From: a virus
Lineage: Duplodnaviria; Caudoviricetes
Virus record (IMG/VR): IMGVR_UViG_3300031088_000782
Coordinates: 245,535-309,534 of that record
Length of the DNA stretch: 64,000 bases
Direction: 5' to 3' (one strand)
Shown: positions 378 to 41,492 of the stretch, piece by piece
Numbering within the stretch: position 1 is the first letter of the stretch
Layout: every line of letters starts with the position of its first letter
Notes under the pieces: model-generated
Told to the model about the DNA's origin: nothing
Seen by the model: the letters and a program-made list of their open reading frames with translations, nothing else
The model's database searches: none
Program-made: the position numbers and the translations under genes

Positions 378-857
378 ATGTCTGATAGATACGTTTATAC
401 TGCCAACATGACGAACTTCTTTTCAAGAGAATTATATATGTATAGCCTCGGTGACATTAAATTCAAAAAACCGATTTCGTTGAAAAAGGTAGCTTATACA
501 ACTGCTTTCGTAATTATTTGGACACTTCCTATTATACTTATTTTTGGAATTCAGCTTAATCCATTCTATTTTGCTATTGTGCTTTTGCCGCCTTTTGTTT
601 TGGGTAATTTTGCTGCTAAGCCTGTATGGGGCGGTAGAGGATTAGTTGATTTTATTAAAACTTTGAGTGGATTCATTGCTGAACCTAAAGGGTGGACGGA
701 TTTGAATGCTACTAATGTATTAGATAAAGAAGTTCTATTCATTGAACAAGAAATTTGGATAAGCCGACGAAGAGAATTGTATCTTCTTGCTCAACTGAAA
801 GAGCAGAAAGAGCGTGAGTCTGGAAAAATCAAACCCCGAAAGAAATTGAGAAAGTGA
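378..857 (+). CDS. TcpE-family conjugal transfer membrane protein
   Basis: ELYMYSLGDIKFKKPISLKK, two TM helices, GGRGLVDFI...EPK; directly upstream of a VirB4-like ATPase as in Tcp/Tn916-type systems. Confidence 0.7.
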   Translation: MSDRYVYTANMTNFFSRELYMYSLGDIKFKKPISLKKVAYTTAFVIIWTLPIILIFGIQLNPFYFAIVLLPPFVLGNFAAKPVWGGRGLVDFIKTLSGFIAEPKGWTDLNATNVLDKEVLFIEQEIWISRRRELYLLAQLKEQKERESGKIKPRKKLRK

Positions 858-863
858 TAAAGC

Positions 864-2060
864 ATGGCAAACAAGTTTAATTATTCAACAAGTATGTTTA
901 TTGGAACTACGACTAATGGTATTGAAATGCCTGTATTCTTTGATACTCATACTCCTATCTTCAACAACAACCCGCCTGGAATACTTATTACAGGTCAACC
1001 GGGTTCTGGTAAAACATTCTTGGCTATGACTTTGACAGCTATTTGTGCAATTATTGGAAAAATCACAGTAGTGCTTGACCCTAAAGGTGATTTTCTTGCT
1101 CTCAATGAAATTAAAGAAGATGTTGGAGATATAAGTTTCTGGAATCTGGCAGATAGGAGACAAAAGGGAATATTAGATCCTTTTTATATGGCTGATGATA
1201 AGGGTGATCAATTGGATCTTGTTCTCAGTGTTATTGACATGTTTGTGGGAGGTTTGACTGGCGATCAGTTGACTCACCTTTCTCCTGTTGTCAAAGATGT
1301 TCAAGAAATGCATGTTCCCTCTCTTTTGGCGGTTACGGATGCTTTACAGACTTCGCCTCATTCAATAGCTAGAAATTTGGGAGCGCATTTGGATCTTGTT
1401 AGAAGATTACCTTTTGCTGATTTGTGTTTCGCACCTGGTTCAAGGAAGAGAAAAAACGTTAAGTTTGATAGTGGTGTTACTGTTATTACATTGATTGGTC
1501 TTGAACTTACTCCTGAGTCGGACAATAATAATGTCAGCCAAACTAACGCAAATAAGAAACGACTTTCTTCAGCTATTTTCTTTCTTTTGACAGACTTTAT
1601 TCGAAGAATCATGTACAATGATACTTCTGATAGTCCAAAAACTTTAATTATTGACGAAGCATGGGCTGTTTTATCTACCCCTGCTGGTGCTGAATGCATT
1701 AAATCGGTTGCCCGTCTTGGTCGTTCTAAGCGCCTTGCTATGATTCTTGTTACTCAAAACAATTCAGATGTGAAAAAGATGAGTATTGAAAACACAATTA
1801 CAACACGTTTTGCTTTTAAAACAGATCCAACTGAGGCTTCTGACATTGTTGAAGGTATGCAGCTTCCTATTGGGGAAAGTTTTGAGAATGCTCTTATAGG
1901 TTTGAATAATGGAGAATGCCTGTTCAAGGACTTCCAGGGGCGTTATTCTACTATACAGATCAGCGATTGGCGTAGAAGCTGGACTGAAGCGTTTGAAACT
2001 AATCCTCTTGAAAAAATGCGAGCACAAAAGAAAAAACAAGCGTTGGCAAAGAATAAGTAG
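864..2060 (+). CDS. VirB4/TcpF-like conjugation ATPase (ATPase domain only, 398 aa)
   Basis: Walker A GQPGSGKT, LDPKGD, Walker B IIDEAW, ARLGRS, LVTQN. Confidence 0.8.
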   Translation: MANKFNYSTSMFIGTTTNGIEMPVFFDTHTPIFNNNPPGILITGQPGSGKTFLAMTLTAICAIIGKITVVLDPKGDFLALNEIKEDVGDISFWNLADRRQKGILDPFYMADDKGDQLDLVLSVIDMFVGGLTGDQLTHLSPVVKDVQEMHVPSLLAVTDALQTSPHSIARNLGAHLDLVRRLPFADLCFAPGSRKRKNVKFDSGVTVITLIGLELTPESDNNNVSQTNANKKRLSSAIFFLLTDFIRRIMYNDTSDSPKTLIIDEAWAVLSTPAGAECIKSVARLGRSKRLAMILVTQNNSDVKKMSIENTITTRFAFKTDPTEASDIVEGMQLPIGESFENALIGLNNGECLFKDFQGRYSTIQISDWRRSWTEAFETNPLEKMRAQKKKQALAKNK

Positions 2061-2137
2061 ATTCTGATATTCCTTTATGGAACAAGAACCACAACTACCA
2101 CTTTATAGCTATTTTATGTAGGAAGGAATTGCTGAGT

Positions 2138-3031
2138 ATGGCATCTAAAGGAAAGAAAGGTCTGAAAAGTAACGGACTGATTCTCATAGCAATAGGCGTA
2201 GTATCTCTTATTCTGTTTGGAGTCGTTTTCTCAGTAGCTTCGAAACTATTTCAGACAGAAACATATTACGTTCTTAAACAAGACGTTCCGACGAGAACAC
2301 AGGTAACAGAAGAAATGCTTGAACCTGTTGTTACATCTGAGGGAACAGCACCAGAAGCAGCTATCGGTTTAGCTGACGTTCAGACAGGAAATGTTTACAC
2401 CCAATACCCACTTCTGTCAGGAGATATTCTTACTATGTCTAATGTTGGAGCAATGGAAGACATTTCTGTTGGTATTCCTGATACTTGGGTTATCACAAAC
2501 TTCTCAGTAAACGCGGATGATGCTGTTGGCGGAAGAATCCAAAGAGGAACATATTTTGACATTATGGTCACATCCGATGATGGTTCATTCTATCCTTTTG
2601 TCAATGTTCTTGCACTTGACACAACAGTAGATCTCAGCAATGCATCCTCTTCTGAAGCTGCTGATTCCGAAGAGGCACATGAAGGACAAACCTCACAATA
2701 TGTTGTTGGTATGTCTCCTGAAAATGCCGCTAAATTACAAAACATTGTCAAAAAGTACAACAATGACATCAAACTCGTTCTTTCACCAAGACAGAATGAA
2801 TACGAGAAACCACAACTTGCTTCTTACAGCGGTAACTTCAAGTTTGCATCAGGTGACGAAACTATTGCACCAGGACAAGGTGAAGATGGAGAGCAAACTG
2901 ACTACACATTCACTGATGTTGAACGTGATGCATTCGGAAGACCAGTTGAGAAACTTGAAAACTGTTCATCAGGAAACTCAAAGGTTGCTGGTGAAGATTG
3001 TAAAGACAGTGAAACACAATCTGATGAGTAA
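2138..3031 (+). CDS. CpaB/RcpC-like pilus assembly protein (TM + SAF domain)
   Basis: N-terminal TM; SAF-like YYVLKQDVPTRTQVTEEML...PLLSGDILT; RcpC-like VNADDAVGGRIQRGTYFDIMV. Confidence 0.75.
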   Translation: MASKGKKGLKSNGLILIAIGVVSLILFGVVFSVASKLFQTETYYVLKQDVPTRTQVTEEMLEPVVTSEGTAPEAAIGLADVQTGNVYTQYPLLSGDILTMSNVGAMEDISVGIPDTWVITNFSVNADDAVGGRIQRGTYFDIMVTSDDGSFYPFVNVLALDTTVDLSNASSSEAADSEEAHEGQTSQYVVGMSPENAAKLQNIVKKYNNDIKLVLSPRQNEYEKPQLASYSGNFKFASGDETIAPGQGEDGEQTDYTFTDVERDAFGRPVEKLENCSSGNSKVAGEDCKDSETQSDE

Positions 3032-3050
3032 TAGTTTAGATTAAGCAATA

Positions 3051-3103
3051 AAAACCATAGGGCTGTAGTAGGTTTGGAAACATTCATACAGCCCTATGGT
3101 TTT
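3051..3103. terminator. 16-bp IR, 21-nt loop
   Basis: aaaaccatagggctgt/acagccctatggtttt after CpaB-like gene. Confidence 0.7.
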
Positions 3104-3252
3104 GTCTGAAAATACTATTCTGATATTAAAACATGGAAGCGTGAAAACTTCTAAATGAAAACCAAAAATAATTATTTCTTCGTCTACCACCACGAAGAAG
3201 AGGGTAAGATTATTCAGTAGATCACCCAACTTCTGAAAGAAAAGGGAAAAAC

Positions 3253-4608
3253 ATGCCAGTACGTCCAAAAGCAATATTTGTAGGGCCAGCAAAGCTTGGC
3301 GAACATTTAGAGAAATTGAGAAAAGGCTGGGACTTCGTTAGCATTGTGCCAGATATCGCAAGTCTTTGGAACGGCCTCAACAACCAGACTATTGATGACA
3401 ATGTTCAGGTAATAATAACCTTAGACGGATTCTTCAAACCAGATTCGGAAGAAGATTCATCATTTGAGCAGTTAGTTGCCATGATGTCCCCCCATTGTTT
3501 CTTCTTAATTGTGTCTTATATGCCAGAATACGAAAGCCAAATGAGATCAAGAATCAGCTCAGAGTCTCATGCTGTCGGAAATGGTGGAAATGAAGAATAC
3601 TTTTTCGTTGACCCAAAACGTCCCAACCTGACAATCGACAGAGCACTTGCAGAATATATTAAAAACACTGAAAACAAAGAAGTAGCCGCTATTCTTGATG
3701 GAAGAGAAATAGAGCAAGATCCCGCTACACAAGAACTGCAAGAAGTTCAACCAGCTCCTGTAGCCACAGATTATAACTTTGATGACATTGAAAGTGACAA
3801 GTTGGGACAGGTTGTTGCTATCACATCAAGTAAAGGTGGATCCGGCAAGTCTACTGTTGCAACAACCTTAGCAACATATTTAGCTCATTCTTCAATCAAC
3901 TCCGTTAAAGAAGGACTAGAAGAAAAGCCACTCAAAATCTGTATTCTCGACTTGGACGTTAGGGACGGTCAGATTGGATTCTTAACAGGAAACCTTCAGC
4001 CTACAGTTCTTCATATGAGATCGCATGGTATTGATCCTCAAACTCTCAGTGAAACAATCATTTACAGTGAAAGACTGAAAGTAGATTTGCTATTAGCACC
4101 TAAAAGACCAAGACTTTCAGATGATACTCCAGCTGAATTCTACTTAGAACTTATTCAATTTTTGAAACGATTCTATGATTATGTCATTTTGGATACTTCT
4201 GTGAACTATCTTGATCCATTATTGGAGAAAGTTGCTTATCCGATTGCAGATCAAATTATTTTCGTTTCAGACATTGTTGTTCATTCTGTTTATTCAATGA
4301 CACGATGGATTCAAGAGGTTACAAAACCTAAGAGTCAGCAGGGAATGGGAATAGACAAAAAGAAAATCGGTATTGTTGTCAATAAATCAATGGCGAACAT
4401 CAGCATGTCAGGCGAAAAAATCGCTAAAAGTGCACTTGGTCTCCCAGTTCTGACAGTTATACCAAACAACGCTAAACTTTTGGCACACGCAGCTAACCTT
4501 CAGTCAATGGAGCAAGTTCTGAGACATGCAGATATCAAAAACTCTATCAGGCTATTAGCGCGTCGTATCGTCGGTAAAAAATATAAACTTACTGATAACG
4601 TGTCATAA
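3253..4608 (+). CDS. CpaE/TadZ-MinD/ParA-family ATPase with N-terminal receiver-like domain
   Basis: Deviant Walker A SSKGGSGKST, ILDLDVRDG, YDYVILDTS, IGIVVNK; follows CpaB-like gene. Confidence 0.75.
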   Translation: MPVRPKAIFVGPAKLGEHLEKLRKGWDFVSIVPDIASLWNGLNNQTIDDNVQVIITLDGFFKPDSEEDSSFEQLVAMMSPHCFFLIVSYMPEYESQMRSRISSESHAVGNGGNEEYFFVDPKRPNLTIDRALAEYIKNTENKEVAAILDGREIEQDPATQELQEVQPAPVATDYNFDDIESDKLGQVVAITSSKGGSGKSTVATTLATYLAHSSINSVKEGLEEKPLKICILDLDVRDGQIGFLTGNLQPTVLHMRSHGIDPQTLSETIIYSERLKVDLLLAPKRPRLSDDTPAEFYLELIQFLKRFYDYVILDTSVNYLDPLLEKVAYPIADQIIFVSDIVVHSVYSMTRWIQEVTKPKSQQGMGIDKKKIGIVVNKSMANISMSGEKIAKSALGLPVLTVIPNNAKLLAHAANLQSMEQVLRHADIKNSIRLLARRIVGKKYKLTDNVS

Positions 4609-4640
4609 CAGATTTTCCCTCTTAACGGGCGGAAAAACAC

Positions 4641-4686
4641 ACAACACAGGTTCCTAGTGGTAGGGGAGCCTGTGTTGTTTTTTTTT
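4641..4686 (+). terminator. hairpin + T tract
   Basis: acaacacaggttcc/ggagcctgtgttgt-T tract after CpaE-like gene. Confidence 0.75.
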
Positions 4687-4781
4687 ATTCCCTCTTTTAT
4701 CAACACCAGTAGACAAAATTTTATAAACATTATAGAAAGCACTTATAAGGCACAGAGACATTCTACAAAAGGACAGCTGAC

Positions 4782-5990
4782 ATGGGCAAATTTCACATTA
4801 ATGACAAAGATGAAGTAAAACCATGTAAAGCAACTATCAAAAAATGTAAATTTGGAGATAAGAAACATTTTTCAACAATTCATGAAGCAGAACAAGAATT
4901 AGTAGAAAATTTTAACAATAAAACTATAAAAACTCTATCAAAGATCAAACCTGACACTTTATCTGCAAACATCAGTAAAAACTACTCTCATTTGTCAATA
5001 ATCTTCGACCACATGCACAACAGCGGCCACACAGGAAACGAACTTGAACAGTACTATTACAATTCCCCTGCTGGAAGGTTAGAACTTGAAAGAAGAACAG
5101 GAAAAGGGAATAACATAGACAAAACTTATATAAAAATAAAAGAAATAATTGACGATCCTGAATTCCAACCAATTGACACAAAAATTAACGAAAACAAACT
5201 TAATGAATCAATTCAAACAGGTTATGAAAGTTTTTCTGAAAAGTTTGGCGAAAAAGACAAAGAATTAGATTACGAATACAGCGATATTGATCCTAAAACA
5301 AATGAAATGAGACATGCTTTAGTGGAAGAATCTCACAAGTGGTATCTTAATCTTTCAACAGAACAGCAGGAAGCTATTTCCGAACTTACATCATCAGGAT
5401 TTGAAAAACTTCAATATGCTCATGGAATCAAAACAAATTCACCAGCAAATTTTATTTTTGACACAGACATAGATATAGATGAATTTTATGAAACTTATGA
5501 TGGAAATGATTTTAAAGAAGAACTCAATAGAAGATTCTCATCAATAGGAGATGAATACAAGAAAAATATTGATGAAGCTTTTAAACATACCCCCAAACTT
5601 GAAAAACCTATCATAACATACCGAGGAACAAGTTTAGAAGAAATCAAAGAAATAGCAGGATTCGATTCAGAAACAGATGACAAACAATTCACAGAAAAAA
5701 TGTTAAATGGAGAACTCGATAATCAGAATATTAGTGAAAAATCTAGATTAGCTAATTTACCTATTTCTTCAACAGTTTCAACAAACATTGCTAAAAGATT
5801 CGGTAAAGGAATATATTTAGAAATTAAACGTCACACATCAAGCAGTCCTGTATTGAACAGCGCATGGGGAAGCTACGAACAAGAATTTTTGACAAACCCG
5901 AACAGTAAATACAAAATAATCGAAGCAGTAGAAAGTCAAAATAAAAGAGACAAAGGATTGATCGTTCGAATAGAAGAAATAGCTAATTGA
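4782..5990 (+). CDS. R-S-E type ADP-ribosyltransferase (VIP2/Alt-like) with N-terminal His/Cys module
   Basis: ITYRGT, ISSTVS, SYEQEFL motifs; N-term FHIN..DEVKPCKATIKKCKFG...HFST..EA. Confidence 0.7.
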   Translation: MGKFHINDKDEVKPCKATIKKCKFGDKKHFSTIHEAEQELVENFNNKTIKTLSKIKPDTLSANISKNYSHLSIIFDHMHNSGHTGNELEQYYYNSPAGRLELERRTGKGNNIDKTYIKIKEIIDDPEFQPIDTKINENKLNESIQTGYESFSEKFGEKDKELDYEYSDIDPKTNEMRHALVEESHKWYLNLSTEQQEAISELTSSGFEKLQYAHGIKTNSPANFIFDTDIDIDEFYETYDGNDFKEELNRRFSSIGDEYKKNIDEAFKHTPKLEKPIITYRGTSLEEIKEIAGFDSETDDKQFTEKMLNGELDNQNISEKSRLANLPISSTVSTNIAKRFGKGIYLEIKRHTSSSPVLNSAWGSYEQEFLTNPNSKYKIIEAVESQNKRDKGLIVRIEEIAN

Positions 5991-6038
5991 ATAAAAACTA
6001 TCCTAATTTTTAAAATTAAATAATTTTTTAGAATAATT

Positions 6039-6101
6039 AAAATAGAGCAGATAGACATTAGAAGAATAATAATCCTTCACAACGCTCATCTGCTCTATTT
6101 T
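6039..6101. terminator. 14-bp IR, 35-nt loop
   Basis: aaaatagagcagat/atctgctctatttt between convergent genes. Confidence 0.6.
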
Positions 6102-6125
6102 TAATGGTTTTTAGGGAATTTTTAA

Positions 6126-6253
6126 ATTCTTAAAACTCATTCTCTAACGGCATTCAAAAACGCCGCATAAAACCTTGCTTATTTCAGGTATAAAAAGGTT
6201 ATTTTTAAAGGGATTTTCTAAAAACCTTATTTTCCCTATCCCGGTACTAAAAA
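6126..6253 (+). repeat. Degenerate copy A of dispersed ~120-bp repeat
   Basis: GCATAAAACC core, then GATTTTC..AAAACC.T.TTTT...TATC.C.GTA.T.AAA aligned by eye with copy C. Confidence 0.6.
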
Positions 6254-6305
6254 CAGAAAAATTTCTCTCAAAATTCATTATGGAACTTTCAGCAAAATAA
6301 ATTCT

Positions 6306-7940
6306 TCAATTGTCCATTTCATTTTCAAGCATCAAAGGAAGCATCAGAACAGGATTGATCTCAGCGTCAAAAAGATCACTGTCCAGAGCATTATGCCATT
6401 CTTGGAAGCTCGGGAAAGTTTCAATAGATAAAATATACATCATATTAAAAAATTCAACACATGATTTAAACCATTCATCACTGTTATCTTTAGACAAAAT
6501 TTTAATAAAAATATCCAAACTATTATCAATATTGCTTGCCATGCTTCCAAAAACAACATTCTTCATATTTTCTTTACTCTGATAATTTAAAATAAAATCA
6601 TCTTTAAAGCTCATATCTTTTCTATTAGAGTAGTTAACATAAGAAAAGCTAATAGTTTTGTCATCATTTATCTTCTGTTTTTTAATACTGACGAAATTAT
6701 AAAGAAAAACAAGATTAAATACATTATAAAGATCCTCAGCAGAAACACAGTCCTTCTTTCTATATATCTCTTTCAGAAATCTCACAGCTAAAAAAGAATA
6801 ATTCTCATCATGAAAATAATCAAGATCGTGCTTTTTAAAATATTTATTAAACTTGTTATAGATCTCTTTCAATTCAGAAATAACCTTCTCTTTATTTAAA
6901 TCTGCATCAAAATACATCAAAGCCCACACAGCGTGCCTAGTCCAGTCAAAATGAGAACTGTAACTACCGCGCTCAAAGAAATCAAACGCAAACATCTCCT
7001 TACTAGAAAGATAAATACTCGAATCAACATACATATGTTCAACCATTTCAATAAAACTATCAAACATATTATTATCTTCTTTATTTTCGTATGCATCTAC
7101 ACGACTACGAAACCAAACAATCTCTTCATAAGCTTTCTCATTAAAACGAGAAACGGCTTTATCCAAATCAATACGAGAAAGTTCAGAAAATGATTCACAA
7201 AACTTTAACAAAAAATTTCGTGAATAATTACTATCTGCAGGCTTAAACCCATAACCAATATAACGACTCAAACGCTCAAGAGAAGAAGTAATAAAATAAA
7301 AGCCATCTGCATTTTCTTTTGAGAGATTTGGAACAAGAAGCCGATTATTCAAATGATCATAATAATCTTTGTAATAGACACAAGAATAAGATTTTTTCGA
7401 ATCTTCTACATAATCAACAGTAAAGTTTTCGCCAACAAAATCTTTGTCAATGATTCCTTTAACCAAAGCGAACTGAGTGACAGTATAATCAAAATCTGAA
7501 AGTATAGCCTCCGGAGATCCAAAATTTTTGCGCACCAAATCAATTGTCACATTATAAAAATAATCATAGAACCCAATAGAATTTTCCGTGTCATATTTTT
7601 TCTCAAAACCAGGTCTTTCACTAAATAATTTAACAGCATCATTGAAATCCTCTTCGCTCTCAAAGAAAACATCAATATCCTTAATAGCTCTACTTGTCAA
7701 ATAATCCTTAAAAACGCCTCCAGCAATAAAACCTTTATGCCCATCAAGAATGCTCTCAGCAAAAGCACTCACAAACTTCTGCAAATCTTCTTCTTTATCA
7801 TTATCTGTTGTAGCATTATCGGTGTCGGTGTTTCGTTCTACAAGAATTTCAGAGTTATCTTCAGAAATTACTGAAGTACTGAAAGAACAATTCGCATTCA
7901 CAACAACAGAATTCACTCCATAAGACAAGATAGCCTCCAC
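6306..7940 (-). CDS. Nucleotidyltransferase, poly(A) polymerase/CCA-adding head-like, with long C-terminal extension
   Basis: FIAGGVFKD, KDIDVFF, TIDLV, ILSDFDYTVTQFA (GG...DxD and FDxT motifs). Confidence 0.65.
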   Translation of the reverse strand: MEAILSYGVNSVVVNANCSFSTSVISEDNSEILVERNTDTDNATTDNDKEEDLQKFVSAFAESILDGHKGFIAGGVFKDYLTSRAIKDIDVFFESEEDFNDAVKLFSERPGFEKKYDTENSIGFYDYFYNVTIDLVRKNFGSPEAILSDFDYTVTQFALVKGIIDKDFVGENFTVDYVEDSKKSYSCVYYKDYYDHLNNRLLVPNLSKENADGFYFITSSLERLSRYIGYGFKPADSNYSRNFLLKFCESFSELSRIDLDKAVSRFNEKAYEEIVWFRSRVDAYENKEDNNMFDSFIEMVEHMYVDSSIYLSSKEMFAFDFFERGSYSSHFDWTRHAVWALMYFDADLNKEKVISELKEIYNKFNKYFKKHDLDYFHDENYSFLAVRFLKEIYRKKDCVSAEDLYNVFNLVFLYNFVSIKKQKINDDKTISFSYVNYSNRKDMSFKDDFILNYQSKENMKNVVFGSMASNIDNSLDIFIKILSKDNSDEWFKSCVEFFNMMYILSIETFPSFQEWHNALDSDLFDAEINPVLMLPLMLENEMDN

Positions 7941-8090
7941 AATTTCTAAAAATATCTCACAAAAACTTATACAAAAACAATCCTATCATAGAACACAATC
8001 AAAGTCAATGACAGTATTCCCAACTTAATCATTTATCCTTTTGATTGTATTCTTGAACAAACTATCATTTCAACAAATAATAAAAATAGA

Positions 8091-8134
8091 AAAGTCCATA
8101 AGGTATATTATTCGTTATATACCTTATGGACTTT
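8091..8134. terminator. 18-bp IR
   Basis: Downstream of pilT-like gene. Confidence 0.75.
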
Positions 8135-8150
8135 ATTTTTCTAAAAACAT

Positions 8151-9875
8151 TTAACCAAGTTTTTTCAACAATTCGTTAAAACGGATAATGCTTGTGGCTT
8201 GACGGCGAGCAGCGTCTACCTCACATCTATCCTCAGAAACAGCCCTCACCAGAGCATGTTCCATTGTAATCTCACGATCTATCTGATACTGTTTGATCCC
8301 CTCAATGTCAGCATGAAGGATCATTCGTGAAACTTCTTCATCAACATTAAGAATTTCACGAACAGCAAATCTTGACTCGCCATCCTTCGACTGCAATAGA
8401 ACCTGATTAGCAAAACCACGAACATTCTCTGACAATGAACCAAGAATTCGAATCTGATCATCTCCCTGATACAAAGAACGAATACGGTTTACAGTAGCCG
8501 GGGCTGAATTAGTGTGCATAGTCGAAATAGCCAAATGGCCTGTCTCAGCAGCTCTCAACAATTCATTAACCTCAGTCTGATTCCTAACCTCACCAATCAT
8601 TATAATGTCTGGTGCCTGACGCATAGCACTCGTCAAAGCGCCAGCAAAGGTTCGGGTATCTCTACCAACCTCACGTTGAGTAATCAATGCCTTACCCTCT
8701 GTTCCGTACATGAACTCAACAGGTCTCTCAACCGTAATAATCTTACAAGCCCTGTCCATCTGAATCTTATGTATCAAAGAAGCCAAAGTGCTCGATTTTC
8801 CAGTTCCCGTTGGCCCATTCATCATGACCAAACCATTCGGCAAATCACACCAATCAATCAAATCTTGCTCAACACCCAAATCTTCAGGCATAGGAATGAT
8901 GTTACTGATAATACGGAACACCATAGCAAAATCTCCACCATTAGCCTTCAACACAGACAAACGCAAACGTCTCCCCTGATACTTTCCCTTCTTTACGACA
9001 TAAGAAGCATCCAATTCAAGATCCGTAGCAAAATCAGATTGCGCAACATGTGAAGTAATATTTGTGAAAATTCTCTGCACAATAGTAGCAGGAATAATAC
9101 CAAAATCACTCACACGTCGAATGTCACCTAAAACAGTATAAGCAATATAATCATTCGGAGAAATATGAATATCCGAAGCCTTCAAATCAATTCCAAAACC
9201 AATAATCGCATCAATATCAAACCCAGAAAACTCATCCTCAAAATCATCCTCACTCAAATCATAAGCACCAGAGAAAGAATCCTCACTCTCATCCCCATTA
9301 AAAGCAGCATCTAAAATAGAATCAACATCATCCGAAACGGGATCATCACTATCATGCTCATCAATAGTATTCAAAACATTCTCAAACGAATCAAACTGAG
9401 CAGTGTCCTCAATACTATCATCTTCATCAATGTCTAAATCAGTATGAGAATCATAATCAGAATTTTCATAACCTTCATCAAACTCTTCATCAACAGAATC
9501 GTAAGAGCGAGAACGGTAATGTGAATCATAATCATCCTCATTGCCATTCACATCAACATAAAAATCAGGAATACTATGAGCAGATTCTTCGTATTCTCCA
9601 TGCCCCTCATCTTTGACAACATACACATCCTCAACACCAGGCAAAGCATCATCCTCGATCTCATAACCAATAAGATCTTCATTCGGATTACCCTCAATCA
9701 AATCACGAGAATGCTCAAAAGTTCCAGTAGACAAATTGCTCACATCAACATCAAGAGACATCAGATCAAAACTATCCTCATACTCTTCCTCCTCATCAGA
9801 ATCATCTAACAAAGGATTCACAACATCATCCTCATCGTCCAATAAAGGATTCGAGTCATCATTCAGATCATCCAT
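8151..9875 (-). CDS. pilT: PilT/PilU-like type IV pilus ATPase with ~215-aa acidic N-terminal extension
   Basis: ASDIHI, GPTGTGKSST, AMRQAPDIIMIGEVR, AETGHLAISTMHTNSA; RBS AGGAGAG upstream. Confidence 0.8.
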   Translation of the reverse strand: MDDLNDDSNPLLDDEDDVVNPLLDDSDEEEEYEDSFDLMSLDVDVSNLSTGTFEHSRDLIEGNPNEDLIGYEIEDDALPGVEDVYVVKDEGHGEYEESAHSIPDFYVDVNGNEDDYDSHYRSRSYDSVDEEFDEGYENSDYDSHTDLDIDEDDSIEDTAQFDSFENVLNTIDEHDSDDPVSDDVDSILDAAFNGDESEDSFSGAYDLSEDDFEDEFSGFDIDAIIGFGIDLKASDIHISPNDYIAYTVLGDIRRVSDFGIIPATIVQRIFTNITSHVAQSDFATDLELDASYVVKKGKYQGRRLRLSVLKANGGDFAMVFRIISNIIPMPEDLGVEQDLIDWCDLPNGLVMMNGPTGTGKSSTLASLIHKIQMDRACKIITVERPVEFMYGTEGKALITQREVGRDTRTFAGALTSAMRQAPDIIMIGEVRNQTEVNELLRAAETGHLAISTMHTNSAPATVNRIRSLYQGDDQIRILGSLSENVRGFANQVLLQSKDGESRFAVREILNVDEEVSRMILHADIEGIKQYQIDREITMEHALVRAVSEDRCEVDAARRQATSIIRFNELLKKLG

Positions 9876-12202
9876 AAATCTCTCTCCTTAAACACACCGT
9901 CTTCAGTAATAACAGGAACGATATCAATACGCCCCTCCTGCCATAAACCAATCTCTTTAGAAATCTGCTCCAACTTACGAGCAGGGCCAATATTTTTACA
10001 CACCCAAATAACTTTCTTATACAATCTATTATCAGCACGATAAGCTCTCAAAGTTTTCTCATAAGAACCACTCGCTTTATTGTTAATCTCAATCTCCACA
10101 GCAATACTCTCCGGTGTTCCATCCTCATTTCTTGGACGAACAACAACAAGGTCAGGAACATGGTAAGCCAAACGAATATTGAAAGGCGGCATCAAAGCCC
10201 ACATGTACTCATTCCCCAAAACTTGCTCAGGGCTTGGGCCGAAATTAACACCACCAGCACGCTCCCAAGAACGAAATTGTTTCTCAATCTCAGCCAACAA
10301 TTCAGGACGATACACATCAGATTTATCAAACATCTTAATCTTTCCAAAAGCAGATTGAATCTCCAGCTCACTCACAAGCTTCTCACCAAACACCATCTCC
10401 CCCTTACCATCAACACGATTACGCACAGGAAATTCAGGAAGATTAAGAACATTCACATTAGCACCCCACAAGTTAGCAGCAGTATTATTTACCGTAAACT
10501 GATGCGGAAACATACTAAAAGTCAACTTGCTTTCGGTCACACGAGGCAAATCAAAACCAGACAAAAGCAAACCAGCCTCAGTCAAAAACCAAATCGGACG
10601 AGCACCATAAATCTTCCTATCAATCACCAAACCAACACTACGCAACTTCTTCAACCTATTATAAGAAGTCTGCACACTACAAGAAAACATACGAGCCAAC
10701 TGCGCATCAGTAGCATAACGGAACATAGCCAAAAACTGCAAAGTCTCACGATCCTTAGCATTGAAAGAAGAACGAGAACCACGCTTCAAACCATCAGCAC
10801 CACGCAAAGCCTGCTCATACAAAACAACCCTCGCCTTACGATCAGCCTCACTCTCACCCAACCCATCAGAGTTAGAACGTAAAGAAGAAACCAAAGAATC
10901 ATCACTCAAAACAGAAGACTTACTACCGCCTAGATTTTTGAAAAACTCCAACTCCGCAACATTCACACGACCATCATTAGACAAATAACGATAACGCTCC
11001 CGAGAACCAGAACCACTCTTTTTCACACCCTTATCAACTGCAGACGAAGAACCTTTTGTAACAGCATCCGAATCTTTCGCAACACTTTCAGAACCTTCAG
11101 AAACATCACTAACAGAATCAGAAATAGAATCCACAACCGAATCTGAACTACCAGAAACTATACGACCAGAGTCATCAACAACAACCTCACGAACAGGCTT
11201 CCTCTTAAAATCAGAATCAATAGCACGAGGTCCACGCTTCCCCTGCTTCTTCTTTTTAGAAGCCGCACCACGCTTCTTCGAACGCTCACGAGAATCAACA
11301 ATAGTCTCATAAAAAGAACCCAAACGATCCGCATCCCCATCAGAAACCAAAGACTTAAACTCAGCACCAGACACAACAGAGTCACGAACAGACTCAACAG
11401 AATCAATAGAAACTTCATCTGTATTGCCTGACTCACTATTAGACAATCTTTCAACAGCCCCAACAGAATTAACTGCACCAGACACATAATCTTCATCCTC
11501 CTCATCAACAAAAGGATTAAAAGAATCAGAAACAGAATCACTTGCCGGAATACCAGAAGACTCTTTTACACTCTTTGTAGAAACATTATCAAAACCGACA
11601 AAAGTTTCAGAATCATCATCCTCGCTACCATCAACAAAAGATTCCCTATCTTGAATCCCACGAGAAATAGCACCTACATCAATAATAAAATCAGAAGAAC
11701 CAGAACTGGAATTTAAAACAGAATCATCATCCTCCCCCACAAATTCATCAAAGAATTCATCATCAAAAGAATCAAACGAATCATCAACTCCATCAGAAAA
11801 ATCTTCAACAGAATCGGTCAAATCAGAATCAGCAACAGAATTAAAGTCAACACTGGAACCCTCAGAAATTTCATCCTCCTCATCAACAAAAGGATTAAAG
11901 GAATCAGAATCAACACCTGAACTATTTGAGACAACAACATCTTTTATAGAATCACCAATAGAAGAATCATTTACTGAAACACTTGTAGAAGACTTTTCAA
12001 TAGAATCCTCAACCGGAGAAACATCATCAAATTTAATAGGACTAAACTTAAACTTCTTCACAGGAGAAACAGAACTACTATCAATAATAGAATCTTTATC
12101 ATAATTCTCAACATCACTAGTATCTGAAACGACAACAGATTCATCTACTATACTATCATCACTATCAGAAGAACCAAAATTAGGTTTTTTAAACTCAACC
12201 AT
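9863..12202 (-). CDS. Replication-relaxation (Replic_Relax) family protein with long Ser/Asp-rich N-terminus
   Basis: C-terminal wHTH (ETLQFLAMFRYAT..QLARMF...RLKKL...GLV...WFLTEAG), PHQF, PDLVV, IAVEIE; start chosen at MVEFKKPNF (ATG 12202). Confidence 0.7.
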   Translation of the reverse strand: MVEFKKPNFGSSDSDDSIVDESVVVSDTSDVENYDKDSIIDSSSVSPVKKFKFSPIKFDDVSPVEDSIEKSSTSVSVNDSSIGDSIKDVVVSNSSGVDSDSFNPFVDEEDEISEGSSVDFNSVADSDLTDSVEDFSDGVDDSFDSFDDEFFDEFVGEDDDSVLNSSSGSSDFIIDVGAISRGIQDRESFVDGSEDDDSETFVGFDNVSTKSVKESSGIPASDSVSDSFNPFVDEEDEDYVSGAVNSVGAVERLSNSESGNTDEVSIDSVESVRDSVVSGAEFKSLVSDGDADRLGSFYETIVDSRERSKKRGAASKKKKQGKRGPRAIDSDFKRKPVREVVVDDSGRIVSGSSDSVVDSISDSVSDVSEGSESVAKDSDAVTKGSSSAVDKGVKKSGSGSRERYRYLSNDGRVNVAELEFFKNLGGSKSSVLSDDSLVSSLRSNSDGLGESEADRKARVVLYEQALRGADGLKRGSRSSFNAKDRETLQFLAMFRYATDAQLARMFSCSVQTSYNRLKKLRSVGLVIDRKIYGARPIWFLTEAGLLLSGFDLPRVTESKLTFSMFPHQFTVNNTAANLWGANVNVLNLPEFPVRNRVDGKGEMVFGEKLVSELEIQSAFGKIKMFDKSDVYRPELLAEIEKQFRSWERAGGVNFGPSPEQVLGNEYMWALMPPFNIRLAYHVPDLVVVRPRNEDGTPESIAVEIEINNKASGSYEKTLRAYRADNRLYKKVIWVCKNIGPARKLEQISKEIGLWQEGRIDIVPVITEDGVFKERDLWMI
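11493..11899. repeat. Two identical 29-bp direct repeats (11493-11521, 11871-11899) encoding FNPFVDEED
   Basis: tcatcctcctcatcaacaaaaggattaaa read at both positions. Confidence 0.9.
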
Positions 12203-12565: not shown

Positions 12566-12817
12566 GTCCGCTACGCGGACGCAACTATTGTTCAAGCGCA
12601 GGGCGCTTTCTCAGATAGTTGCCCGAACGCCTGGGGGCGTCCGGAGGGTGCCAGTTTGTCGCTGACGCGCCAAACCTGATACGGCAATGCTGACGCATCA
12701 CCGTATCAGCCACTCGGTCGGGGAGTGGAGTGTTGTTTGTGAGTGCGTTGTTACTTACGTTCACAAACTTGCGGTTCGGGTTTGATAAATGTTGCAAAAG
12801 GGTTTGCTAAACATTTG
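12566..12817. other. Cluster of GC-rich hairpins in non-coding island
   Basis: GTCCGC-tac-GCGGAC (12566-80); CTGATACGG..ATGC-tgac-GCAT..CCGTATCAG (12676-12709); GTTTGTGA/TCACAAAC (12735-68); AAATGTT/AACATTT (~12788-12817). Confidence 0.7.
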
Positions 12818-13359
12818 AGAAAGGAGACAAGGTAGAAGGTCCGAGGAAAGAGAAGAGTTGAAGAAAGAACGTAGGTGTGCGCTACACTGTTAAGGTAGCG
12901 GTTCAAAAGTCAGGACAGGTCAGGGTCATGGGTGTGCGGAACACTACGCCACAACATAGGGTTAAGAAAAGGAATGGGTGTGCGCTACACAGCAAAGGCA
13001 AGGGTTGGGGGTTGTAAGTGTGCGGAACACTCCAACAGCGGTAGCGGAACGAATGGCGCGTCAGCGACAGGCGTGACATGAACGTGCCGCGTCAGCGGGA
13101 CGTTCAGCGAAAAGCGCGTCAGCGGTTTGAGTCGGCTTGGTGGGGAGGGGAAGTTGAGGAACGTGGGTGTGCGAAACACTGTGGTTAGGTCACGATGAAA
13201 ACGAAACGTGAGTGGAACGGAAAGCACCGCGTCAGCGGGGATTGTAGTGGAACGTGAGTGTAGTTGGAATGGGACTTGGTTGCAGTCACCGTGAAAAGCT
13301 GGGAACGGATCATGCTCAGGTTATAGTCACCGGGAATGGTTGAGGGGTGAGCGTCAGCG
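12660..13359. repeat. GCGTCAGC(G) motif: five + copies and two inverted copies
   Basis: + at 13058, 13089, 13116, 13229, 13351; inverted (GCTGACGC) at 12661 and 12689. Confidence 0.85.
12875..13179 (+). repeat. Five copies of GTGTGCG(CT/GA/AA)ACAC, iteron/operator-like
   Basis: At 12875, 12932, 12978, 13018, 13167; dyad GTGT-N5-ACAC. Confidence 0.85.
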
Positions 13360-38916: not shown

Positions 38917-40377
38917 GTGAGAATGACTTTCAAGCAGGATTACATGCGCGGTTTGGATGCTATCTATGAGTATGCTCCGTATTTTTACCGTATTATGCGT
39001 TTCATCGGTATTCCGCAGGAGAACTATGACATTCCTACCGCTCAGGTGTCTTACAATCCGCACGATAAGACGATTCTGTTTGAGGTTAACCCCGAACTGA
39101 TTGAGGGTATGTCTGATGAGGAAGTAGGGTTCGTTGTTTCGCACGAAGCTTACCATGTTCTTTTGAGTCATTTGAAAGAGGTTCAGCAACGTGATGAGTA
39201 TCCTGACTCTGAATCTCTGTTGCTGGCTCATGAGGCGATTATCAACGATACTGTGGGTAATGTTCTCGGACTTGACGCTCCTGATATGGATTTGGTTTTC
39301 GGTGATAGGTTCGGTGCTGATTTTTCGGGGTTCTCTACTCGTGAAGCCTATGACTGGATTCGAGACAATGAGGATGAGAATAGCTCTAATGATGCACAGT
39401 CTGAAGATAGCGATTCTGGCTCTGATTCGAATGATGATTCTGATTCAGAGAGCAATGGTGATGAACAGAGCGGACAGTCAAGTGGATCTCAGAACAAGAG
39501 TGGTAACGCTTCTCACGGTTGTGGTGGTGTTTTTGTGCCGGAAGGCTTTGAGGATGAATTCATTGATGTTCTTTCGGATGTTCTGAAAGATGCTATGGAT
39601 GAAATTTCTCAAAAGGGAGATTCTGTTCCAACTGATTTTGTCAATGTTTTGAATGACATTGAGCAAGATTCGGGAAATGATATCACTGGTGGTTACAGTA
39701 TCGGCAACAACACTGGTTCAATGTTCGCTGGAAAAATGGATGACATGAATTTGGATTGGAAGATGCTTATTGCTGAGTTCAATCCGAAGATTCTGACTTC
39801 TGGCGGCTCAAAGTTCCGCGACAGTTGGACATCTCCTAATCGACGTATGATTAGTGTGTATCCGAAGGTTGTCATGCCTAATCGTGTCCGTAAAGACAAT
39901 TCGGGTGATAATGGTGACGATGTTCCTACATTCATTCTTGCTTTGGATATGAGTTATTCGATTCCTGAAAGACTTATTGCAGGTTTGGCTAATCTTGCGG
40001 ACACTGTTCCTGACAAGTTTGTGAGGGTTATGCCTGTCACTTGGGCTGATGATGTTTTGGAGTTCGATACTAAGCAGAAGAAGATTGTATATCGTGGCGG
40101 AACTAACATTGACGCTGTGTGGGATTATTCTCAAAAGGTGAAGAAAGAAATTGGCAAAGAGCCTTATGTTTTTGTTATTACTGATGGACAGTGTTCTTTT
40201 AACAATCGTTATTCTTATTCATATGGTTCTAAGGGTGGCCCTGTCAATGATTCTGTTGTTCGAAAGAATTGGTATTGGGGTGCAATTCAGCATCGAGATG
40301 TCAATTCTATCAAAGTCAACATGCGCAATCAGGTTGACCCTGAAAAGGTTTATCTTGTTGATGATTTCTTGGCTTGA
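38917..40377 (+). CDS. DUF2201-type putative metallopeptidase + vWA domain protein
   Basis: VSHEAYH, acidic linker, MIDAS-like LALDMSYS, RGGT, VITDG. Confidence 0.8.
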   Translation: MRMTFKQDYMRGLDAIYEYAPYFYRIMRFIGIPQENYDIPTAQVSYNPHDKTILFEVNPELIEGMSDEEVGFVVSHEAYHVLLSHLKEVQQRDEYPDSESLLLAHEAIINDTVGNVLGLDAPDMDLVFGDRFGADFSGFSTREAYDWIRDNEDENSSNDAQSEDSDSGSDSNDDSDSESNGDEQSGQSSGSQNKSGNASHGCGGVFVPEGFEDEFIDVLSDVLKDAMDEISQKGDSVPTDFVNVLNDIEQDSGNDITGGYSIGNNTGSMFAGKMDDMNLDWKMLIAEFNPKILTSGGSKFRDSWTSPNRRMISVYPKVVMPNRVRKDNSGDNGDDVPTFILALDMSYSIPERLIAGLANLADTVPDKFVRVMPVTWADDVLEFDTKQKKIVYRGGTNIDAVWDYSQKVKKEIGKEPYVFVITDGQCSFNNRYSYSYGSKGGPVNDSVVRKNWYWGAIQHRDVNSIKVNMRNQVDPEKVYLVDDFLA

Positions 40378-40417
40378 TAGTTGAGATAGACGTTTGTTGA
40401 ATTGTTTGATTGGGGGC

Positions 40418-40465
40418 AAAGTGCCAAACCTGAATTTTTCTCATGTTTTTCAGGTTTGGCACTTT
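40418..40465. terminator. 17-bp IR
   Basis: aaagtgccaaacctgaa/ttcaggtttggcacttt. Confidence 0.75.
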
Positions 40466-40468
40466 TCG

Positions 40469-40497
40469 TTGACAAGACATCAATTTTCATATATAAT
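40469..40497 (+). promoter_or_regulatory. perfect consensus sigma70 promoter
   Basis: TTGACA-17-TATAAT. Confidence 0.8.
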
Positions 40498-40532
40498 TGT
40501 TGTATATTGAGTAATATTATGGAGGCAGAAGT

Positions 40533-41492
40533 ATGTTAATGTTGAGTATTTTCTGGACAATAGGGTTATCTGGAGTGGGCGTTTTCTCTTTCTGGGTTAA
40601 TAAATCCTTGCGTGCTTCTCGTCCTTACAATCCTATGGCTTTGACTACAAGAGAAAAGTTTTCTTATATGATTAAAGATGTTGTTGAATATTTCAGAAGA
40701 GGTTTTGGGTTGTCAGAAACTCTACCTTTGACCCACAAAAGGTATAATCTCGCACTGAGTCATTTAGAAGATAACAATGCTGATTTTGTTGTTATTAATC
40801 GGAACTATCTCTATTGTGATAAATACCGTATTGCTTTGAAAATTCTTAATGAAACAGACTATTGTGATTCTCTTGTTCAAAAATTTCCTAAAATTCAGAA
40901 AAGCGAGTTAGGCACTGTTCTCAAAGATAAGATTGACACTTTTCATGAATCTCAATTGACTCAACCTGAATACTCTGATGCATATATTAAAACAGCAGAC
41001 GATTATGATTATTCATTTTTTGATGAAGTAGAACTTTTGGAAAAACTTGATGAAATAATGGAAGAAGAAAGCGATTCACAAGAGTTAGAACAGAATTCTC
41101 TTGATAGTTCGCAAGAAAAAGATTTGTCTCTTCTGTCTGAATATGATAAACTCTATTATCACACAGAGAAGATTTACAAATCGTTTGATGGTTTTGAGCC
41201 TATTATAGTTCCTGTTGATGAAAACTGGAGAGACTTTAAAAAACATGAAGATACGCTCAAAAGCATTTCTCAGCAAAAGGAAGACTATCTGAAAGAATTG
41301 TCAAATAGGGAATTGGCTGATGCTGAGCTGATTGACATGTTTGACAAAAGATTGAGCGAAGTGAAGATGGATAGGCTGAGGAGTCTGTATGATTTCTTTG
41401 CTTTTGCTCAAAACACGCCTCATGAGAATTCTGTTGTTCATAAAGATAATGAAATCACTTTGAAGGCTATGAATAAGCTGATGAGAACTTGA
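40533..41492 (+). CDS. TM + coiled-coil family protein
   Basis: N-term TM; ADAELIDMFDKR...ITLKAMNKLM. Confidence 0.7.
   Translation: MLMLSIFWTIGLSGVGVFSFWVNKSLRASRPYNPMALTTREKFSYMIKDVVEYFRRGFGLSETLPLTHKRYNLALSHLEDNNADFVVINRNYLYCDKYRIALKILNETDYCDSLVQKFPKIQKSELGTVLKDKIDTFHESQLTQPEYSDAYIKTADDYDYSFFDEVELLEKLDEIMEEESDSQELEQNSLDSSQEKDLSLLSEYDKLYYHTEKIYKSFDGFEPIIVPVDENWRDFKKHEDTLKSISQQKEDYLKELSNRELADAELIDMFDKRLSEVKMDRLRSLYDFFAFAQNTPHENSVVHKDNEITLKAMNKLMRT

Follow-up and report, generated by a model that had tools for sequence, protein, structure and literature searches.

Do the genes for a Tad-type pilus, a Gram-positive type IV secretion system (T4SS) and a PilT-family ATPase, which lie together within 12 kb of a giant AT-rich element, belong to a single machine? 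The question is raised by positions 378-12202 of the window analysed here (the whole stretch of 64,000 nucleotides), which is the last 64 kb of a 309,534-bp IMG/VR record filed as a "provirus" (G000). Gram-positive conjugation is generally regarded as pilus-free, and Tad pili as needing no separate retraction ATPase. An earlier note on this DNA had named six proteins in the stretch (TcpE, VirB4-like, CpaB, CpaE/MinD, PilT and Replic_Relax), and all six have been found as intact open frames with family signals. The analysis has revealed a second conserved locus in the same record (G000 32-52 kb), and we lean, with slightly more belief than doubt, towards a reading in which both loci form a pilus-assisted DNA-transfer (conjugation) machine of giant elements without virion genes.

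Organization and conservation of the block

On this giant AT-rich element, the Tad-type and Tcp/T4SS-type genes form a single block that is conserved and has its genes in one orientation, in agreement with the earlier note. The conserved module has about 24 kb (G000 234-258 kb), and the stretch 378-12202 corresponds to its right-hand two thirds. The full order starts with RadA and continues, after small or unknown proteins, with pilin, TadC, TadA, TadB, RusA-like, TcpE, VirB4C (the C-terminal half of VirB4), CpaB and CpaE, followed by a convergent PilT-like/Replic_Relax pair. This order is kept, at 30-68% protein identity, in six relatives, which comprise a 25-kb Logan contig and contigs of 390-828 kb from JGI, ENA and IMG/VR, the Replic_Relax gene being seen wherever the locus extends that far. 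Because the same order recurs in these six relatives, the co-location of Tad and Tcp/T4SS genes is not due to chance, and the earlier doubt that the genes might not be syntenic in relatives has been settled in favour of synteny. In every close relative TcpE and VirB4C are located between TadB and CpaB, and in two more distant records the TcpE-VirB4C pair is kept with a T2SSF or CpaE-like neighbour. Only the spacer between CpaE and PilT varies: it holds two genes described below in the source element and an NAD-dependent ligase in most relatives, and it is empty in the record with inverted terminal repeats.

The block proteins have many homologues (the PilT-like protein more than 590, VirB4C 270 and the Replic_Relax-type protein 255), nearly all of them metagenomic, and the three homologue lists have at least 15 contig sizes in common, from 9 kb to 0.73 Mb. 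When viral contigs were searched with a pattern from the VirB4C sequence alone, there was no match; a search based on an alignment was successful. The 11.9-kb stretch gave no match to phage and plasmid collections by megablast.

Within the window, the plus-strand part of the block begins with a TcpE-family small membrane protein (378-857; PF12648, E 8e-10, above cut-off) in a VirB3-like position directly 5' of VirB4C. Its residues 37-80 are hydrophobic, a length that fits about two membrane spans, and its orthologues (26-55% identity) are found immediately 5' of VirB4C in 8 loci. The catalytic ATPase gene virB4C (864-2060) is followed by a CpaB/RcpC-like gene (2129-3031), for which the matches to TIGR03177 (2.5e-7) and PF16976 (5.6e-4) were both below cut-off; RcpC is matched by six of seven orthologues of this protein, which has one N-terminal transmembrane span (residues 11-43). 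The next gene (3253-4608) encodes a CpaE/TadZ-like MinD/ParA ATPase with its core at residues ~180-450, which was matched by CbiA (1.3e-9), AAA_31 and minD_bact (2e-12), and by CpaE_hom_Actino (1.5e-7) under the CpaE-specific cut-off. It carries the deviant Walker A sequence KGGSGKST, and its N-terminal region (1-~175) may be read, by eye, as receiver-like. A terminator-like hairpin (4641-4678, plus strand; 15-bp stem and T-run, detected as a pattern match only) marks the end of the plus-strand operon.

The earlier note had supposed that pilin, TadB/C, prepilin peptidase and coupling protein, which it did not see in the stretch, might lie upstream. This has proved correct for a pilin-like protein and for TadB/C, which were found next to a true TadA in the 20 kb before the window (locus L001), and for a coupling protein about 210 kb upstream; a prepilin peptidase was not found in any of six records. 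The order in this upstream part is RadA/Sms, three small or unknown proteins, pilin-like, TadC, TadA, TadB, a 197-aa protein and a homing endonuclease gene that runs into the window. The RadA/Sms protein that heads the block is bona fide (TIGR00416, 427 bits, above cut-off), and TadC and TadB are two T2SSF proteins (9.5e-14 and 7.3e-9). The TadA-family ATPase has 1,069 aa (L001:14262-17471, G000 239,796-243,005; TIGR03819, 5e-42), and its Walker A (GGTHSGK|…) is interrupted by an intein of ~460 aa with a LAGLIDADG domain, the motif being uninterrupted in an intein-less orthologue. Inteins were also seen in a second TadA/VirB11-like ATPase of the same record (G000 61.5-64.3 kb) and in several PilT-like homologues of relatives; G000 further encodes a short FtsK-like ATPase (202 kb).

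The pilin-like protein has 100 aa, with a leader of ~24 residues up to DRG, which is followed by DLVQT and a hydrophobic helix, and with two conserved Cys; it lacks a Glu at +5 and has neither Pfam nor NCBIfam match. Two further proteins of the upstream part are probably related to DNA handling. The 197-aa protein has the conserved stretch RRxDPPNLxPTxKALxDGLTDAxWWxDD, which we take to resemble the catalytic region of E. coli RusA, a likeness that no Pfam model confirms. The 327-aa protein is predicted to consist of an N-terminal OB-like barrel and a helical bundle (pLDDT 89.6), with weak fold matches in the PDB (best E 0.03, to SSB or AspRS OB folds). When orthologues or 58 homologues were scanned with Pfam, no consistent family was found for either of the two.

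From these assignments, three sets of genes can be distinguished in the module. The pilin-like protein, TadC, intein-containing TadA, TadB and the CpaB-like and CpaE-like proteins would make up a monoderm-type Tad/Flp pilus. Inside this Tad operon, the VirB3-like TcpE and the catalytic VirB4C form a second set, and the flanking genes a putative DNA-handling set, with RadA, the OB-fold protein and the RusA-like protein upstream and the PilT-family ATPase, the Replic_Relax-type protein and iterons downstream.

The split VirB4 and a second conserved locus

The "half-length VirB4-like ATPase" of the earlier note is indeed the AAA_10 ATPase half of VirB4 (398 aa, E 8e-52), with the correction that it is the C-terminal, RecA-type half of a split VirB4/TcpF whose N-terminal half is encoded 206 kb away. 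VirB4C matches positions 468-809 of the 813-position TcpF/VirB4 profile, and an N-terminal domain is not present on the same polypeptide as the ATPase domain. Its closest cellular or plasmid relatives are actinobacterial, with only 33-34% identity. One of them, on the Nocardiopsis plasmid NZ_CP074136, is a normal VirB4 of 847 aa, with two genes annotated as "conjugal transfer protein" 5' of it and a MinD/ParA gene nearby. When the N-terminal 447 residues of this Nocardiopsis VirB4 were used as query, a separate 461-aa gene (virB4N) was found at G000 39,537-40,922 (E 8e-25), and one such gene each in G001-G004, which together with G005 are related IMG/VR "virus" records (the six records G000-G005 have sizes of 179-438 kb). 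VirB4N matches TcpF profile positions 6-428. Because the two proteins cover complementary positions of the profile, VirB4 is split into two genes, each half in a different locus, and the split is old. The distance between both genes ranges from 16 to ~180 kb in the relatives, and only one AAA_10 gene is present in G000.

A decayed fragment is ruled out for VirB4C by the size of its family (270 homologues), by the uniform length of the 120 homologues listed (364-415 aa) and by the Walker A (GxPGSGK) and Walker B (DE) motifs, which are invariant across homologues. The joining of both halves by an intein was also ruled out: VirB4N ends at profile position 428 with ~6 residues to spare, and on the VirB4C side the TcpF match starts at residue 43, the 42 preceding residues being conserved in the family and showing no intein C-fragment by eye.

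The gene virB4N belongs to the second conserved locus, which contains in this order a coupling protein (T4CP) of VirD4/TraG type (TrwB_AAD_bind and TraG-D_C domains), TcpC, VirB4N, two unknown proteins, two pseudopilins, PhoH/PIN, a VirB6-like membrane protein of the CD3337/EF1877 family and a lysozyme-type hydrolase. This order is kept in G001, G002 and G003; in G003 the locus is located inside the inverted terminal repeats and is thus present twice. VirB4, coupling protein, TcpE, TcpC, VirB6-like protein and hydrolase, the components that define an MPF-FATA system, are all present, and these FATA-type parts lie in G000 at 34-51 kb and 246-248 kb, not in one locus. One of the pseudopilins scores above the TadE cut-off (PF07811). 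Their leaders read KG|DSLVS and RG|DTLVM, so that the leader pattern [KR]G|D-x-LV is common to both of them and to the pilin-like protein of the Tad operon. TadE-like pseudopilins are found between VirB4N and the VirB6-like gene in G000, G001 and G002, with the G003 orthologue detected by tblastn only.

The interleaving is thus reciprocal, with TcpE and VirB4C inside the Tad operon and pseudopilins inside the T4SS locus. We consider this arrangement the strongest argument for one machine, and because it survives down to ~30% identity it suggests a joint function of both sets.

PilT-like ATPase, Replic_Relax-type protein and their shared motif

The minus-strand gene at 8151-9875 encodes a PilT-family hexameric ATPase, for which the earlier note had left room for a clustering with TadA/CpaF. 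Among 17 models the best was the PilT model TIGR01420 (1e-74; 252 bits, 251.7 before rounding, under the curated cut-off of 319.1), followed by TraJ (145 bits) and DotB (114), versus 39 bits for the TadA family (5e-10), and the PDB matches were PilT (1e-46), PilU (1e-35), DotB (2e-30), PilB (1e-27) and CpaF (4e-6). The protein thus groups with true PilT and not with TadA/CpaF. The pilus platform and ATPase genes in G000 are of Tad type only. The PilT-like core (residues ~221-574) lies behind an acidic, disordered N-terminal extension of 220 aa with two NPLLDD motifs.

The adjoining minus-strand gene (9863-12202) encodes a Replic_Relax-type protein, 779 aa long if translation starts, as is likely, at 12202 (the frame stays open up to 12268), and it adjoins the PilT-like gene in relatives too. 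Its matches to PF13814 (1.5e-3) and to the MobC subfamily (3e-6) were both below cut-off. The protein consists of an acidic disordered N-terminal region with two NPFVDE motifs, a winged helix and a PD-(D/E)XK-like nuclease domain. A model of its conserved C-terminal 382 residues was made with AF2 from an alignment of 31 sequences (pLDDT 86), and among the AFDB clusters that this model matches, several are named Replication-relaxation and one restriction endonuclease (TM 0.65/0.67); one of the structural matches is a TraM-recognition (T4CP) coupling-protein fusion, and in the PDB Foldseek matched the winged-helix part only. The homologues (255, with 46-100% identity) keep D287, E306, E308 and K312 without variation, which is the pattern of a PD-(D/E)XK core. 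The identity as a Replic_Relax protein is weak by sequence, and the predicted fold supports it.

Upstream of this gene, a gene-free stretch of ~1.4 kb includes an iteron-like repeat array at 12660-13359. The sequence GTGTGCGNNACAC is present there in five copies, all on the same strand, and is absent from the rest of the 309 kb, and GCGTCAGCG occurs five times in direct and once in inverted orientation, with one other copy in G000. The stretch is GC-richer, and no gene is called there in loci L002 and L003; the repeat sequence is not conserved in relatives. The array is a candidate oriT, origin or operator.

The motif NP[FL][LVI]D[DE] (NPxxDD) is common to the N-terminal regions of the PilT-like ATPase (window 9780-9850) and the Replic_Relax-type protein (11450-11900) and to an HU-like DNA-binding protein (G000 66,703-67,167), which has it once, at the C-terminus. 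Only 4 of the 318 open reading frames of G000 carry it. Among homologues it was found in 68 of 120 PilT-like proteins (typically at residues 7 and 28) and in 81 of 120 Replic_Relax proteins, but in none of 120 VirB4C and none of 150 homologues of the 327-aa protein. From this distribution we infer a common docking partner. Prediction of a complex between the CpaE-like protein and the N-terminal 45 residues of the PilT-like protein gave a score of 0.08, which is evidence neither way. The PilT-like ATPase may be either a pilus retraction motor or a T4SS ATPase in the style of DotB/TraJ, and the motif that it has in common with the Replic_Relax and HU-like proteins would favour its recruitment to a DNA-processing or coupling hub.

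Function of the block, nature of the elements and neighbouring genes

The record G000 has a GC content of ~35% and genes mostly on one strand. The same DNA was found within an ENA contig of 681,645 bp, so the element has at least 681 kb. Among sequencing runs, the strongest DNA match, and a possible source of this DNA, is a phyllosphere metagenome; no RNA run was listed as a match. Past the right end of G000, this contig (L029 10698-20561) continues with an RNA ligase and with M23 peptidase and CAP proteins that carry LGFP repeats, a domain typical of Actinomycetota; the "provirus" borders look artificial, because like genes run on beyond the right end. A cluster of ~34 kb (G000 145,134-178,814) contains 66 tRNA genes, many of them duplicated, and a tmRNA gene (tag ANANKNAYALAA); one tRNA has a TTA anticodon and would read UAA. 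Terminal repeats were found in three of the six records G000-G005, direct in two of 420 kb and inverted in one of 438 kb (G003), the inverted ones being long, like those of actinobacterial linear plasmids. Searches of the six records for HK97 capsid, two terminase families, portal and tail sheath (PF05065, PF03237, PF03354, PF04860 and PF04984) gave no match over cut-off. No rpoB or 16S rRNA was found in the six records, and for this reason the elements are taken not to be cells. The interpretation of the contig as a small bacterial chromosome of the CPR type was ruled out, as rpoB and 16S rRNA are lacking, the tRNA genes are clustered and duplicated, and there are no close GTDB species relatives. 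We read the family as plasmid-like elements that are giant (0.3-0.8 Mb), AT-rich and self-transmissible and whose replication, tRNA and anti-defence genes resemble those of phages, and the six IMG/VR "virus" records may be such elements, misfiled.

The closest precedent found is provided by the linear plasmids of Cutibacterium acnes, which have FtsK-, VirB4- and TcpC-like genes next to a Tad locus and for which a link between pili and conjugation has been raised by the authors (PMC5696575). These plasmids (p15.1.R1/pIMPLE type) are likewise Gram-positive replicons that join a Tad locus with FATA-type conjugation genes, but by the description in that paper they have ~50 kb, their loci are adjacent and not interleaved, and they are without split VirB4 or PilT (PMC5696575). 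The elements described here differ from them in four ways: their Tad and conjugation genes are interleaved, VirB4 is split, a PilT-family ATPase with the shared motif is present, and their size is giant. As in the MPF-FATA systems (the Tcp locus of pCW3, Tn916, ICEBs1 and the Nocardiopsis plasmid), TcpE lies directly 5' of VirB4, and the TcpC/VirB8-like protein, the CD3337/EF1877-family VirB6-like protein, the cell-wall hydrolase, the VirD4/TraG-type coupling protein and MinD/ParA are present here too; the differences are the parts of VirB4 split up to 206 kb apart, the distribution over at least two loci interleaved with Tad genes and the failure to find a MOB_P or Rep_trans relaxase.

With the Tad/Flp pili (Caulobacter Cpa, Aggregatibacter Tad and actinobacterial Tad) the block has in common a TadA-family ATPase, two T2SSF platform proteins, CpaB/RcpC-like and CpaE/TadZ-like proteins, TadE-like pseudopilins and a short pilin-like protein whose leader is of class-III type. 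It differs from them in the order TadC-TadA-TadB, in leaders without Glu at +5, in the prepilin peptidase that was not found, in the VirB3- and VirB4-type genes inside the operon and in the extra PilT-family ATPase; we know of no Tad system with an ATPase of this family. ATPases of the PilT clade serve T4SSs in the case of DotB (Dot/Icm, type IVB), which works with the VirB4-type DotO, and of TraJ (IncI). The block resembles these in having a PilT-clade ATPase alongside a VirB4-type one, but its PilT-like protein is much nearer to true PilT. In the archaeal Ced system, a short VirB4/HerA-type ATPase and small membrane proteins cooperate with Ups type IV pili in DNA transfer. The block is similar in combining a short VirB4-type ATPase and a small membrane protein with genes of a type IV-type filament, but the match of VirB4C to CedB is short and weak (6e-8), and membership is not claimed. 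In literature searches of incomplete coverage, neither the module nor a split VirB4 that is conserved nor a Tad/T4SS hybrid with PilT was found described.

In the machine that we favour, both loci would build one envelope-spanning apparatus in a Gram-positive, probably actinobacterial, host. For the host, the LGFP domains and the best VirB4 matches both suggest Actinomycetota. The Tad-type filament would make or tighten the contact between cells, and the reassembled VirB4 would form the translocon together with TcpE, TcpC, the VirB6-like protein and the hydrolase. The Replic_Relax-type protein would process the DNA of the element at the iterons, and the coupling protein would then pass it to the channel, so that the giant element, whole or in part, could move between cells. 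What the data show are the gene content, the ATPase motifs that are intact, the split VirB4 and the synteny of both loci; the physical integration of the sets, the direction of DNA transfer and the role of the PilT-like protein are inferred in this proposal. More tentatively, and with rather more doubt than confidence, the machine could represent a conjugation class not described before, in which a retractile Tad filament and a FATA T4SS are fused into one Gram-positive machine, the split VirB4 linking both gene sets genetically and perhaps physically, with a relaxosome-like set (Replic_Relax, HU-like and PilT-like proteins) docked by NPxxDD, and by which virion-less elements of 0.3-0.8 Mb filed as "huge phages" would spread.

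Several observations weigh against a conjugation machine of plasmid-like elements. The CpaB assignment is under the curated cut-offs, the Glu at +5 that is canonical in the G/xxxxEY processing site of Flp pilins is missing from the pilin-like leaders, and a prepilin peptidase (PF01478, Peptidase_A24; TadV/CpaA) was not found in G000-G005, in which case processing may be carried out by a host enzyme. MOB_P and Rep_trans relaxases (PF03432 and PF02486) were not found in the same six records, and to our knowledge Replic_Relax proteins are not proven relaxases. The AIRNLIRE helix is canonical in PilT and needed for retraction. At its position the PilT-like protein reads EEVSRMILHAD, with the family consensus EVSxxILxGD, so the canonical helix is not conserved. 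As for the nature of the elements, IMG/VR files G000-G005 as viruses, virion genes that have diverged very far might be missed by the five Pfam models, and of the source element, whose contig has at least 681 kb, 309 kb were covered by the search. The RadA, OB-fold and RusA-like proteins and the NAD-dependent ligase, which is found in relatives only, fit an import of DNA as well as its export.

Such an import machine, in which the Tad filament and PilT retraction would pull in external or neighbour DNA, the split VirB4 and TcpE would drive its import, and RadA, OB-fold protein, RusA-like protein and ligase would ready the incoming DNA for recombination into the element, could be likened to Tad-dependent transformation in Micrococcus or to archaeal Ced with type IV pili. 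When DNA is taken up by means of pili, PilT usually drives the process. A bona fide RadA/Sms heads the conserved block, the fold matches of the 327-aa protein are SSB-like if weak, the RusA-like motif is conserved in the 197-aa protein, a ligase lies between CpaE and PilT in relatives, VirB4C has its weak CedB match, and a precedent of Tad-dependent transformation is cited in PMC5696575. We nevertheless consider import rather unlikely: ComEC and DprA were not found in five records, the OB and RusA assignments are weak and without Pfam match, and the VirD4/TraG-type coupling protein, the Replic_Relax-type protein and the iteron array suggest that it is the DNA of the element itself that is exported. 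The Tad genes might also encode an adhesion or colonisation pilus that is merely the neighbour of a dispersed Gram-positive T4SS, with no physical hybrid, and the PilT-like protein would then be no pilus motor and would serve only the T4SS, as DotB/TraJ do, or DNA processing with Replic_Relax. This would agree with TraJ and DotB as its second- and third-best models, with the NPxxDD motif common to PilT-like, Replic_Relax and HU-like proteins and not to Tad proteins, and with the C. acnes plasmids, where the loci are side by side and not interleaved. Moreover, CpaF of Caulobacter can power both extension and retraction, so that PilT is not needed. Two separate systems seem unlikely to us in view of the position that, in every close relative, TcpE and VirB4C have between TadB and CpaB and the TadE-like pseudopilins between VirB4N and the VirB6-like gene, since a reciprocal interleaving kept down to ~30% identity is hard to explain without a joint function.

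It is very unlikely, in our judgement, that the elements are true huge phages with virion genes diverged beyond recognition, the block being a module for host manipulation or superinfection control (surface change, exclusion of rivals or effector delivery). The filing as viruses, the direct terminal repeats of two records, the clustered tRNAs with tmRNA, the homing endonucleases, inteins and Gad2 anti-defence gene would all suit a phage, and an RHS protein and an ADP-ribosyltransferase-like protein near the block could be effectors. Against this stand the five virion hallmark families not found in six records, the long inverted terminal repeats of one relative, similar to those of actinobacterial linear plasmids, and above all the full FATA-type set with T4CP and relaxase-like protein, which is a self-transmissible signature.

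A conserved operon in which Tad and T4SS genes interleave would be a natural test case for the merging of filament machines and DNA translocons, and the splitting of VirB4 across two loci and the added PilT-family ATPase strengthen its value. The split also offers a simple experimental handle on the cooperation between the N-terminal and ATPase domains of VirB4. In addition, some "huge phage" records are called into question by contigs of up to 0.83 Mb with ~66 tRNAs, a full conjugation-type set and no recognisable virion genes; the family may constitute a lineage of self-transmissible giant elements, which may also make counts of huge phages too high.

Further genes lie in and around the stretch. 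The 3' part of a free-standing homing endonuclease gene of DUF4379/HNH type occupies positions 1-376 of the window (plus strand; 394 aa, beginning at L001:19192), with PF14311 in four stretches and a match to phrog_3339, homing endonuclease (1e-29). It sits between the RusA-like gene and tcpE and is an insertion and not a part of the machine, because it is absent at the same position in the six relatives. The spacer between CpaE and PilT contains two cargo genes that are outside the conserved module. One of them (4782-5990, plus strand) encodes a protein of 402 aa, possibly an ADP-ribosyltransferase by a weak match (phrog_3895, 4e-4). The N-terminus of this protein carries a His/Cys-rich tag, and its match to another gene in two relatives' loci (L022 and L023) is limited to the first ~64 residues; the body of the gene is not at this place in relatives. 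The other (6306-7940, minus strand) encodes a Gad2-like nucleotidyltransferase of 544 aa from the anti-Gabija family (PF26128; phrog_4400, 2e-28), which was not found in the relatives' loci. Between this gene and the PilT-like gene lies a palindromic hairpin (8091-8134; 18-bp stem), terminator-like on both strands by pattern match only. Just 5' of RadA, a 2,123-aa RHS-repeat protein with DUF6531 and eight RHS stretches is encoded (L001:1034-7405, G000 226,568-232,939), which may be a polymorphic toxin.

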